64,000 bases of DNA from Escherichia coli (GTDB lineage Bacteria; Pseudomonadota; Gammaproteobacteria; Enterobacterales; Enterobacteriaceae): assembly GCF_030013205.1 (NCBI RefSeq), contig NZ_CP122648.1. One strand, 5' to 3'. This document shows positions 57,701 to 60,700 of the stretch, in pieces. How positions within the stretch are numbered: the stretch's first letter is position 1; each line of letters begins with the position of its first letter. Made by a program: the position numbers.

Positions 57701-60700
57701 GCTAATCTCGGTCAGGCACGCACCTATATGGCGAAGACCCTGCTGGGCGCGGCGGCGCGAAAAGCAAAACTGGAAATCATCGACAATCCGAACGACGCTG
57801 AAATGGCGATTGTTCTCGGTGATTCCATCCCGAACGACAGCGCGCTGAACGGTAAAAATGTCTGGCTGGGCGATATTTCCCGGGCAGTTGCGCACCCTGA
57901 GCTGTTCCTGAGTGAAGCCAAAGGCCATGCGAAACCTTACACTGCGCCGGTCGCTGCGACAGCACCGGTTGCCGCCAGCGGTCCGAAACGCGTAGTTGCG
58001 GTGACTGCTTGCCCGACTGGCGTAGCACACACCTTTATGGCGGCTGAAGCCATTGAAACCGAAGCGAAAAAACGTGGCTGGTGGGTGAAAGTTGAAACCC
58101 GTGGTTCTGTTGGCGCGGGTAATGCAATCACACCCGAAGAAGTCGCAGCAGCGGATCTGGTGATTGTGGCGGCAGATATCGAAGTGGATCTGGCGAAATT
58201 TGCTGGTAAACCGATGTATCGTACCTCTACCGGTCTGGCGCTGAAGAAAACCGCGCAGGAACTGGATAAAGCGGTTGCTGAAGCAACGCCGTATGAACCG
58301 GCGGGCAAAACTCAAACAGCGACCACTGAAGGTAAGAAAGAGAGTGCAGGCGCTTACCGTCACTTGCTGACGGGCGTCTCTTACATGCTGCCGATGGTCG
58401 TTGCAGGTGGTCTGTGTATCGCGCTTTCTTTTGCTTTTGGTATCGAAGCGTTTAAAGAGCCGGGTACGTTGGCTGCGGCGCTGATGCAGATTGGTGGTGG
58501 TTCAGCCTTTGCGTTGATGGTGCCGGTACTGGCAGGTTATATTGCCTTTTCCATTGCCGATCGTCCGGGTCTCACGCCGGGTCTGATTGGCGGTATGCTG
58601 GCGGTCAGCACTGGTTCTGGCTTCATTGGCGGTATTATTGCGGGCTTCCTGGCTGGTTACATTGCGAAGTTAATCAGTACGCAATTGAAACTGCCACAGA
58701 GTATGGAGGCGCTGAAACCGATTCTGATCATTCCGCTAATTTCCAGTCTGGTGGTCGGTCTGGCGATGATCTACCTGATCGGTAAACCGGTTGCTGGCAT
58801 TCTCGAAGGGTTGACTCACTGGCTGCAGACCATGGGGACTGCGAATGCGGTTCTGCTGGGGGCGATCCTCGGAGGCATGATGTGTACTGACATGGGCGGT
58901 CCGGTAAACAAAGCAGCGTACGCGTTCGGTGTGGGTCTGCTGAGTACTCAAACCTATGGCCCGATGGCGGCGATTATGGCGGCAGGTATGGTGCCACCGC
59001 TGGCAATGGGTCTGGCAACAATGGTGGCGCGTCGCAAATTCGACAAGGCGCAGCAGGAAGGGGGCAAAGCTGCTCTGGTACTGGGACTGTGCTTTATTTC
59101 GGAAGGTGCAATTCCGTTTGCTGCCCGTGATCCGATGCGTGTGCTGCCGTGCTGTATCGTGGGTGGGGCGCTGACTGGCGCAATCTCAATGGCGATTGGT
59201 GCGAAACTGATGGCACCGCACGGTGGTCTGTTTGTTCTGCTGATCCCTGGCGCGATTACGCCGGTATTGGGTTACCTGGTAGCCATTATTGCCGGTACGC
59301 TGGTGGCGGGTCTGGCCTATGCCTTCCTGAAACGTCCGGAAGTGGACGCAGTAGCGAAAGCAGCGTAATAAAAGGTGTGTTACAGGGCAGAAATTTCCTG
59401 CCCTGTAACATTTGATGCGCGCAAAGAGAATGACCGGTTTGTGAATGTAATTTTATGAATTTAAATGGTTTTATCTTTTAGTAGAAACCTGAAACCTTCA
59501 TCAAACACTAGGTGATGCTGCCAACTTACTGATTTAGTGTATGATGGTGTTTTTGAGGTGCTCCAGTGGCTTCTGTTTCTATCAGCTGTCCCTCCTGTTC
59601 AGCTACTGACGGGGTGGTGCGTAACGGCAAAAGCACCGCCGGACATCAGCGCTATCTCTGCTCTCACTGCCGTAAAACATGGCAACTACAGTTCACTTAC
59701 GCCGCCTCTCAGCCCGGTACGCACCAGAAAATCATTGATATGGCCATGAATGGCGTCGGATGTCGCGCCAGTGCACGCATTATTGGCGTTGGCCTCAACA
59801 CGATTTTCCGCCACTTAAAAAACTCAGGCCGCAGTCGGTAACCTCGCGCATACAACCGGGCAGTGATGTGATTGTCTGCGCTGAAATGGACGAACAGTGG
59901 GGCTACGTCGGTGCTAAATCACGTCAGCGCTGGCTGTTTTACGCGTATGACAGGATGCGGAGGACGGTTGTGGCGCACGTCTTCGGTGAACGCACTCTGG
60001 CCACACTGGAGCGTCTTCTGAGCCTGCTGTCGGCCTTTGAGGTCGTGGTATGGATGACGGATGGCTGGCCGCTGTATGAATCACGCCTGAAGGGAAAGCT
60101 GCACGTTATCAGCAAGCGTTATACTCAGCGCATTGAGCGGCATAACCTGAATCTGAGACAACATCTGGCAAGGCTGGGACGGAAGTCACTGTCGTTCTCA
60201 AAATCGGTGGAGCTGCATGACAAGGTCATCGGGCATTATCTGAACATAAAACACTATCAGTAAGTTGGAGTCATTACCCAAACACTAAGGTTATTTCCTC
60301 AAGGGCAGATTAATTTCTGCCCTTTTTTATTGTTCCTGTTCTGTGCATCCCGTCACAAATTCCCCGTTTTTATAATTCAGGCATTTAATCGCGTTTTGTG
60401 AGCCTGCTCAAATCTGCCCATTTTGCCTCTCTGGCGGTAATTTACTTTACGTAAAACATGCATACTATGAGCACATGTTTAAATATGAACACATGTTTAA
60501 ACCGTCTTTGCAGTATCTATATTCTTGTGGATTGACAGGGTTGGTAATTTTTTACCAGAGGACGTGCTATGCGCGAAAAGGATTATGTCGTAATTATAGG
60601 TTCGGCGAATATTGATATCGCCGGATATTCACATGAATCATTAAATTATGCGGATTCAAATCCAGGTAAAATAAAATTTACGCCTGGTGGAGTCGGGCGA

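Follow-up and report, generated by a model that had tools for sequence, protein, structure and literature searches.

An IS1 element lies between fruA and psuK in the Escherichia coli DNA investigated here (contig NZ_CP122648.1), a stretch of 64,000 nucleotides that is referred to as the window. The question raised by this locus is whether the insertion changes the expression of its neighbours. For psuKGT, a reading made from the sequence alone (the sequence-only reading) had proposed that this could happen through read-through or an outward promoter. In ST131, IS1 copies upstream of genes can raise transcription, lower it or leave it unchanged, and activation by IS1 has been attributed to the presence of a correctly spaced -10 (PMC8764528).

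Structure and coding capacity of the IS1 element

The element is a complete IS1 of 768 bp (59511-60278, + strand), with its transposase co-directional with fruA and psuK. It starts with the left terminal inverted repeat GGTGATGCTGCCAACTTACTGAT (IRL, 59511-59533, + strand), which is identical to the canonical IRL used as the query, and ends with the right terminal inverted repeat ATCAGTAAGTTGGAGTCATTACC (IRR, 60256-60278, + strand). The two arms are 23 nt each and are 83 % complementary. The IRL pattern was matched once in the window, against 0 matches expected by chance. A composite transposon was ruled out, there being a single IS1 in the window.

The insA gene (59566-59841, + strand) has a GTG start and encodes 91 aa with a zinc ribbon and a helix-turn-helix (HTH). 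Within it, the programmed -1 frameshift site AAAAAAC (59817-59823, + strand) leads from the insA frame into that of insB (59760-60263, + strand), which is open throughout. A -1 shift at this site generates the InsAB' fusion of 232 aa (59566-60263), and in K_EC180 and ETEC4079 the joined coding sequence carries the RefSeq note 'programmed frameshift'. The three Pfam domains of IS1 are each covered at full or near-full length: Zn_ribbon_InsA (PF03811, 73.9 bits) and HTH_Tnp_IS1 (PF12759, 88.8 bits) in insA, and DDE_Tnp_IS1 (PF03400, 248.5 bits) over residues 1-131 of 131 in insB. For the NCBIfam equivalog transpos_IS1 (NF033558), the score is 242.8 bits (cut-off 100). The length and inverted repeats, the insA-insB arrangement with its A6C site, the domain set and the 9-bp duplication are therefore all those of the IS1 family.

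Based on the promoter scan, a promoter-like sequence, CTGCCA-16-TATGAT (59518-59545, + strand), overlaps the IRL; we take this to be the IS1 promoter pIRL. At the other end, an outward-facing TTGGAG hexamer is present inside the IRR (60265-60270, + strand). The inverted repeat of IS1 is known to carry an outward -35 (PMC8764528), and TTGGAG is probably this -35 hexamer of the right end.

In its length of 768 bp, 23-bp terminal repeats, insA/insB layout, -1 frameshifting at A6C and 9-bp target duplication, the window copy is like IS1A and IS1F of strain K-12. It represents a variant in sequence, with 93.4 % identity to K-12 IS1A and 96.0 % to IS1F, and is labelled by RefSeq as 'IS1 family transposase', neither IS1A nor IS1B. 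The insB of K-12 IS1F is annotated as a pseudogene, whereas the insB frame in the window is open.

Target duplication, empty site and distribution

The element is flanked on both sides by the 9-bp sequence CAAACACTA, to the left at 59502-59510 and to the right at 60279-60287. Two given 9-mers would match by chance with a probability of 4^-9, approximately 4e-6. With IS1 and one 9-mer taken out, the spacer of the window agrees at 423 of 423 positions with that of E. coli O139:H1 strain W13-16, which is uninterrupted and has CAAACACTA as a single copy at this empty site. The two 9-mers of the window are thus a genuine target duplication. The GC content around the insertion site is 0.35, compared with 0.51 for the window.

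Among 5,426 complete E. coli genomes, 7 have the identical insertion, and each of them is from pigs: K_EC180 from Korea, ETEC1748, ETEC4067, ETEC4069, ETEC4070, ETEC4071 and ETEC4079. The last of these is a pig ETEC with Belgium recorded as its source, and the window matches it exactly where the two were compared; for the six other carriers, the alignment covers the 1601-bp junction region. Ten genomes have the empty site between flanks that are identical over 1600 of 1600 bp (100 %); ETEC4068, ETEC4075 and W13-16 are empty-site strains of this kind. Because of these ten, the insertion is, on this comparison of genomes, derived, recent in evolutionary terms and not fixed.

These results agree with much of the sequence-only reading, whose coordinates are all correct and which had described a complete IS1 with insA, insB and both inverted repeats, had regarded the identical 9-mers as a target duplication and had suggested a relatively recent transposition. 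The comparison with insertion-free strains that it had advised is the one reported here, and with seven carriers and ten empty sites, fixation in the whole lineage, which it had named as counting against its view, is not seen.

Misassembly is often caused by IS copies, and these genomes have 19-23 IS1-related matching places per chromosome, counts that include flank matches. It is nonetheless extremely unlikely that the locus is an assembly artefact, or that it arose by recombination of two IS1 copies rather than by simple transposition. Seven complete genomes, assembled independently and coming from two countries, have identical junctions. Recombination between two IS copies would give flanks that do not match, whereas simple insertion is recognised by matching 9-bp duplications together with an exact empty site.

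Copies of IS1 that are 100 % identical to that in the window are present at other loci and on plasmids of the same or related strains, and in many pig E. coli; most strains in which this exact variant occurs are pig-associated. The variant appears to be multiplying, and mobile, in the chromosomes and plasmids of pig ETEC/EDEC, and the copy in the window, with its intact reading frames and ends and its polymorphism within the lineage, may be active as well. The insertion itself is a textbook IS1 event, annotated by RefSeq in all seven carriers, and as such is already known.

Landmarks of the fruA-psuK spacer

Both neighbouring genes are intact. Upstream is fruA (57677-59368, + strand, WP_063086631.1) and downstream is psuK (60569-61510, + strand, WP_033869753.1), and both proteins, FruA and PsuK, are identical in carriers and non-carriers. 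From the end of IS1 to the psuK ATG at 60569 there are 290 nt, in keeping with the approximately 290 bp given earlier by the sequence-only reading. That reading had also placed a stem-loop upstream of IS1 and had called it the probable fruA terminator. The stem-loop is indeed present (hairpin 1, 59378-59410), 10 nt past the fruA stop, with a 14-16 bp stem (-24 kcal/mol, z = -5.25). It may be the fruA terminator, with only TTT as its tail on the + strand; on the - strand the tail is the T-rich CACCTTTTAT, and the terminator scan called hairpin 1 terminator-like on the - strand only. Hairpin 1 is 100 nt upstream of IS1 and is unchanged by the insertion.

On the other side of IS1, 22 nt downstream of the element and 238 nt before the psuK ATG, is a second hairpin followed by T6 (hairpin 2, 60301-60330, + strand; stem-loop 60301-60324), which the sequence-only reading had overlooked. 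Its stem is made of 9 pairs, including 5 G-C pairs, and it has a loop of 6 nt and the tail TTTTTTATTGTT (-17.6 kcal/mol, z = -4.78); with its GC-rich stem, short loop and T run it is a canonical intrinsic-terminator motif. It is predicted still to fold in a transcript that continues from IS1. K-12 retains both hairpins. The fruBKA transcript may therefore have two candidate ends, at hairpin 1 or at hairpin 2. No published 3'-end data were found for fruA or psuK, and the Term-seq supplement of PMC7815308 is without fruA or psuK entries.

Closer to psuK are a candidate psuK promoter, TTTACT-16-TACTAT (60441-60468, + strand), and a tandem pair of 17-bp direct repeats, TATGAGCACATGTTTAA and TATGAACACATGTTTAA (60466-60500, + strand), which may be the psuK operator and are untouched by IS1. 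The promoter scan found a second promoter-like site, TTTAAA-16-TATATT (60496-60523, + strand), whose end is 46 nt short of the psuK ATG. Both candidate psuK promoters are 160-220 bp beyond IS1 and are likewise untouched. No known RNA families were found at 59000-60800 by an Rfam scan with E-values up to 1. A 48-aa 'hypothetical protein' annotated by PGAP in the AL.H8 spacer, which IS1 would interrupt, was rejected as a gene because neither K-12 nor the empty-site form of the window has an open frame of at least 30 aa at this place; a 1-nt indel is present here in K-12.

The spacer as a recurrent target of IS1 and of point mutation

An intergenic psuK/fruA SNP (2257444 A>C) is recurrent in K-12 evolved either in the mouse gut or in long-term stationary phase, and has been tied by the authors to psuK regulation and pseudouridine use (PMC7518454; PMC9509342; PMC7858067). 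The SNP position, numbered on NC_000913.2, maps to 60443 of the window, where the change is T>G on the window strand; this mapping was verified. The window has the wild-type T at this site, which is 165 bp downstream of IS1 and on the opposite side of hairpin 2. The T>G change would turn TTTACT into TTGACT, a near-consensus -35, and would presumably act as a promoter-up mutation. This adaptive SNP of K-12 is in the same 423-bp spacer as the IS1 of the window, but it is a point change.

At least eight independent natural IS1 insertions are present in the 423-bp fruA-psuK spacer. Three of these look promoter-creating, those in CX21, J-8 and the C21/HZDC01 group, with the -35 located 16-17 nt from a -10-like hexamer. 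In other strains there is an IS1-associated deletion of the psu operon. A bias in IS1 orientation was suspected when the first five insertions were all co-oriented with psuK; it was rejected as a search artefact, because the query held IS1 one way and an inverted query gave three sites in the opposite orientation.

Likely effect on the neighbouring genes

The proposed change in psuKGT expression could come about by read-out, with transcription starting at pIRL or entering IS1 from fruBKA, or by a hybrid promoter built on the -35 of the right end. IS1 is transcribed in the same sense as psuK, its ends have an outward -35 that is able to form hybrid promoters (PMC8764528; PMC9330008), and the spacer is a known selection target for psuK regulatory change, with the correct -35 spacing at the three other natural insertions described above. 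At the junction in the window, however, the hexamers that follow TTGGAG at spacings of 16-18 (AAGGTT, AGGTTA and GGTTAT) match TATAAT at only 2, 0 and 3 of 6 positions, and the promoter scan found no promoter-like site across the psuK-facing junction of IS1. The combination of an outward -35 with a -10 at 16-18 bp that makes an IS-created hybrid promoter is therefore absent from the window. With the known IS1 hybrid promoters (afaA in ST131, and the activation of bla-TEM and acrEF), the window shares the element, the outward hexamer and the insertion ahead of a co-oriented operon, but it has no suitably spaced -10 and has a terminator motif directly after the element; this geometry is present at the CX21, J-8 and C21/HZDC01 insertions in the same spacer.

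Read-out is countered by hairpin 2, whose 9-bp GC-rich stem and T6 directly follow the element and should stop both read-through and IS1-promoter transcripts before psuK. Of the mapped IS1 insertions in the spacer, that of the window alone sits upstream of this hairpin. In addition, IS1 insertions are classically polar, and fruBKA transcription is therefore unlikely to cross the element. The earlier proposal of altered psuKGT expression through read-through or an outward promoter is thus unsupported, since hairpin 2 intervenes and there is no spaced -10, and a change by either route is quite unlikely.

An effect of IS1 mainly on fruBKA is also unlikely. Here, the distal 3' UTR would be replaced by IS1 and the stability of the fru mRNA changed, or, conversely, expression of the IS1 transposase, or the inhibition of transposition by incoming transcription, would be coupled to fructose induction. 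This presumes that some of the fruBKA transcripts normally run past hairpin 1 and stop at hairpin 2, and is consistent with the scan, in which hairpin 2 but not hairpin 1, with its TTT tail, was called as a + strand terminator. It is also consistent with the retention of both hairpins in K-12 and with the location of IS1 between them, co-directional with fruA. Against this, hairpin 1 is very stable (-24 kcal/mol), its distance of 10 nt from the stop is the usual position of an operon terminator or 3' stabiliser, and it is left unchanged by the insertion. If fruBKA does end at hairpin 2, then IS1 is inside the fruBKA 3' UTR, the fate of the fru mRNA could change, and IS1 could be transcribed from the fru promoter.

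In the bgl operon, IS1 and IS5 activate by disrupting a silencer. A comparable action on psuK at a distance, by separation of an AT-rich silencer or regulatory region or by bending of the DNA by the IS1 ends, is very unlikely. The DNA is very AT-rich over the 100 nt that directly precede the insertion (GC content 0.33 between the hairpins) and regulatory change in the spacer is under selection, but no silencer or upstream site is known for the spacer, nor was one detected, and approximately 160 bp separate the insertion from the nearest candidate -35 downstream. IS1 shifts the AT-rich segment at 59411-59510 a further 777 bp from psuK, which would matter if this segment holds an upstream regulatory or silencing site.

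It is therefore probable that a single intact IS1 transposed into the fruA-psuK spacer of a pig-associated lineage with neutral, or nearly neutral, consequences. One IS1 copy would have entered the AT-rich spacer in the ancestor of one sub-clade of this lineage, and the staggered cut by InsAB', followed by repair, would have duplicated the 9-bp CAAACACTA. The element sits between hairpin 1, terminator-like on the - strand, and hairpin 2, with its motif on the + strand. Since IS1 is flanked by oppositely acting hairpins, transcripts leaving it either way should stop, before fruA in the antisense direction and before psuK in the sense direction. With these transcripts stopped, and with the coding sequences, both candidate psuK promoters and the putative operator all undisturbed, the insertion would have little effect. 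The copy would then persist by descent, as a lineage marker from which IS1-mediated deletions could possibly arise later. The sequences show directly the identity and integrity of the element, its target duplication, the empty site, the polymorphism in the lineage and its location among the motifs; that hairpin 2 terminates transcripts in vivo, that expression is unaffected and that the insertion is neutral are what we infer from them.

Some observations weigh against neutrality. Intrinsic terminators are rarely 100 % efficient, and positive selection on the spacer is documented, in addition to its at least eight independent IS1 hits. Because of these repeated hits and the documented selection, the prior of a selected insertion is higher here than in a random spacer. 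The spacer could be a natural arena for the rewiring of pseudouridine catabolism by IS1, in which the copy in the window was selected in the pig gut and raises or de-represses psuKGT despite hairpin 2. This is improbable for the window copy. Possible routes would be leaky termination or the displaced upstream AT-rich DNA, and the outcome would parallel the -35-creating SNP sweeping in gut and starvation experiments.

Significance of the insertion

By itself, the insertion in the window has little significance. Its main use is to mark a clade within the pig ETEC/EDEC lineage, and it serves to recall that this IS1 variant is at present mobile there. Of greater use are the mapping of the SNP, the independent placement of an IS1 -35 before the psu operon in wild strains and the IS1-associated loss of the operon in others, which form a separate finding, made in other genomes. 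If confirmed, this finding would link evolution in the laboratory and in the mouse to natural variation in pseudouridine use.

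Structure and distribution of the IS1 insertion

The IS1 element between fruA and psuK (59511-60278, 768 bp) is bounded by the canonical 23-nt imperfect inverted repeats, GGTGATGCTGCCAACTTACTGAT at the left end (59511-59533) and ATCAGTAAGTTGGAGTCATTACC at the right (60256-60278). The insA gene (59566-59841) starts with GTG and codes for 91 aa, the insB frame (59760-60263) is open throughout, and a -1 shift at the AAAAAAC slippery site (59817-59823) gives InsAB', the 232 aa fusion transposase. All three Pfam IS1 domains match InsAB': the zinc ribbon (1-35/35) and the DDE domain (1-131/131, 248.5 bits) from end to end, and the HTH domain almost completely (1-44/46). 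The NCBIfam IS1 equivalog cut-off is also exceeded (242.8 bits vs 100). Its identity is 93.4 % to K-12 IS1A and 96.0 % to IS1F, and copies 100 % identical to it are present elsewhere on the chromosomes and on plasmids of the same and related pig strains, in keeping with current mobility of this variant. The left-end pattern has a single match across the 64 kb, where none would be expected by chance, so the window has one IS1 only and a composite transposon is ruled out.

The 9-bp target duplication, CAAACACTA, abuts the element on the left (59502-59510) and on the right (60279-60287). When IS1 and one 9-mer are removed, the fruA-psuK spacer is identical over 423/423 positions to that of the empty-site strain W13-16 (E. 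coli O139:H1, wild boar, France). The sequence-only reading, which had described a complete IS1 with this duplication lying 290 nt from the psuK ATG, is borne out in each of these respects and in all of its coordinates.

A reconstructed 1600-bp query, from the 3′ end of fruA through the spacer to the 5′ end of psuK, was compared with 5,426 complete E. coli genomes. The empty site is uninterrupted, at 100 % identity, in ten of these (W13-16, P15-25, EC556, EC571, EC581, ETEC4068, ETEC4075, ETEC6333, ETEC6334, and ETEC1701), and seven contain the identical insertion (K_EC180, ETEC1748, 4067, 4069, 4070, 4071, and 4079); all of these strains came from pigs or wild boar. In 1,217/5,425 genomes, coverage of the query is below 80 %, so the junction is rearranged, divergent, or without psuK in about one-fifth of complete E. 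coli genomes.

No base differs between the window and the chromosome of ETEC4079 (Belgium, pig faeces) across the 26 kb compared. This strain and another carrier, K_EC180, differ by a 13.4-kb island and a 55-bp deletion in bcr, therefore the insertion is older than some of the diversification within the sub-clade. Judged from these genome comparisons, the insertion is clearly derived and unfixed in its lineage. The proposed recent transposition agrees with seven carriers and ten empty sites sharing identical flanks, and this comparison with insertion-free strains, which had been suggested as a check, rules out fixation in the lineage.

The GC content of the target region is 0.35, compared with 0.51 for the whole window, in agreement with the known preference of IS1 for AT-rich targets. 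The target CATCAAACACTA (59499-59510) is also identical at 11/12 positions to the subterminal IS1 sequence CATAAAACACTA (60245-60256), just internal to the right inverted repeat. The chance of such a match anywhere in IS1 is estimated, post hoc, at ~0.003-0.01, and the likeness is reminiscent of older reports of IS1 hot spots that look like IS1 ends.

The 13.4-kb island (19495-32851) has tRNA-Pro(GGG) (32854-32930) as its integration site, at the tRNA 3′ end, and its opposite junction carries an imperfect copy of that end. Its gene products include a tyrosine integrase (31403-32644), a RepA-type AAA helicase, a ProQ/FinO protein, and a DUF2213 protein, and several of its ORFs have no Pfam match. 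Absent from K_EC180 and found at 100 % identity in ETEC4079 only, it resembles a phage satellite or an integrative element. In bcr (39382-40517), encoding a multidrug efflux MFS transporter, the deletion relative to K_EC180 (junction near 39634) leaves ORFs of 84 aa and 294 aa; the gene is annotated as frameshifted in ETEC4079 by RefSeq.

Possible effect on neighbouring genes

The spacer contains two stem-loops, one on either side of IS1. Hairpin 1 (59378-59410, -24 kcal/mol) begins 10 nt past the fruA stop codon, has a tail of TTT only on the + strand, and is terminator-like in the scan on the - strand only. Hairpin 2 (60301-60324, + strand, -17.6 kcal/mol), overlooked in the sequence-only reading, is followed by TTTTTT and forms a canonical intrinsic-terminator motif between IS1 and psuK, 22 nt downstream of the element. 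Its stem is kept in K-12 and it is predicted to fold within the transcript leaving IS1. Interpretation is directly affected, since fruBKA read-through, read-through from an IS1 promoter, and any transcript initiated at the right junction would all meet hairpin 2 before psuK. The two hairpins have a common core, AGGGCAGA...TCTGCCCT (59384-59395, 60312-60323), with 12 nt perfectly complementary between them, and the hairpins were ~110 nt apart prior to the insertion.

Nor is a hybrid promoter seen at the right junction. The sole outward TTGnnn hexamer in the right end of IS1 is TTGGAG, and the hexamers 16-18 nt from it (AAGGTT, AGGTTA, and GGTTAT) match TATAAT at no more than 3/6 positions. The promoter scan of the region returned just two + strand sites, the IS1 left-end promoter pIRL (59518-59545) and TTTAAA-16-TATATT (60496-60523) just upstream of psuK. 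Carriers and non-carriers encode identical fruA and psuK proteins.

The earlier interpretation is therefore half right: the IS1 is intact, recent, and polymorphic in the lineage, but the suggested influence on psuKGT is disfavoured, due to the overlooked terminator motif and the absent hybrid promoter. From the arrangement of these motifs, IS1 would lie in a transcriptionally insulated pocket with both neighbours unaffected, and a near-neutral insertion into this AT-rich pocket is probably the best account. Leaky read-through into psuK is unlikely, as transcripts would have to pass hairpin 2. A small change at the fruBKA mRNA 3′ end, conceivable if the operon in fact terminates at hairpin 2, is given similarly little weight, and an effect at a distance, through a putative upstream site, is likewise improbable.

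A 48-aa hypothetical protein (WP_001300063.1) called by PGAP in the spacer of strain AL.H8, at 662-808 on the - strand (corresponding to 59461-59510 and 60288-60385 of the window), would be interrupted by IS1. It is probably a spurious gene call, since neither the empty site of the window nor K-12 has the frame open.

The adaptive SNP in the spacer

Adaptive evolution is reported to target the psuK/fruA spacer, where A>C at 2257444 arises repeatedly, both in K-12 colonising mouse guts (PMC7518454, PMC9509342, PMC6731689, PMC10340439) and in three long-term stationary-phase populations (PMC7858067). The mouse-gut authors place the SNP in the psuK promoter region and report that the mutant grows faster (PMC9509342). 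Conversion from NC_000913.2 to NC_000913.3 requires a shift of +1978, verified at base level in that four srlR mutations from the same tables give the reported amino-acid changes only there, so the SNP is at 2259422 in NC_000913.3. On the psuK strand, T at -126 relative to the ATG (window 60443) becomes G, and TTTACT, 16 nt ahead of TACTAT (60441-60468), would thereby turn into TTGACT, a putative near-consensus -35. The wild-type T is present in the window and in all 16 other loci examined; IS1 lies 165 bp upstream of the site, on the far side of hairpin 2.

At 60466-60500, between the two candidate psuK promoters, TATGAGCACATGTTTAA and TATGAACACATGTTTAA form a tandem pair of 17-bp direct repeats, and ACATGT is present in each. 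They are kept in K-12 and may act as an operator for a regulatory protein.

Other IS1 insertions upstream of psuK

Searches of the 5,426 complete genomes with IS1 in either orientation, followed by junction mapping, identified at least eight distinct insertion sites in the 423-bp spacer, in both orientations. Each intact insertion has its own 9-bp target duplication, except that of RIVM_C037791, which is exact over 8 bp. By window-equivalent start of the target duplication, the sites are at 59502 (the window lineage), 60320 (RIVM_C037791), 60342 (LR-06), 60358 (VG1046-3E9), 60376 (the CX21 group), 60454 (J-8), 60509 (the C21/HZDC01 group), and, in YZLc1-3, 213 nt past the fruA stop, where a deletion follows. 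Among those mapped, the window's insertion is the sole one upstream of hairpin 2.

In three insertions, an outward IS1 -35 lies 16-17 nt from a psuK-facing -10-like hexamer: CX21 (TTGGAG-16-TTTAAT), J-8 (TTGGAG-17-TACTAT, with the -10 that would also pair with the SNP-derived -35), and C21/HZDC01 (TTGGCA-17-TATATT, with the -10 found in the scan). Such geometry is available at 6 % of spacer positions, and three out of eight gives a binomial P of ~0.01; this excess is suggestive only, as the test is post hoc and ignores IS1 target preference. In ST131, the effect of IS1 on the gene downstream of it is reported to depend on such geometry, with afaA up, osmB down, and ugd unchanged (PMC8764528).

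In strains AW1.7, CP61_Sichuan, and YZLc1-3, a deletion beyond an IS1 at or next to the spacer removes psuK through part of rihB. The IS1 directly abuts yeiL or a truncated rihB, thus psuK-psuG-psuT has apparently been lost through IS1-adjacent deletion, and IS1 at this spacer could also seed loss of the operon.

As a feature, the window's insertion is already known and annotated, and the better lead is the wider IS1 activity around psuK in other genomes. There, the insertions with promoter-like geometry may have raised pseudouridine catabolism in nature, in parallel with the evolved SNP.
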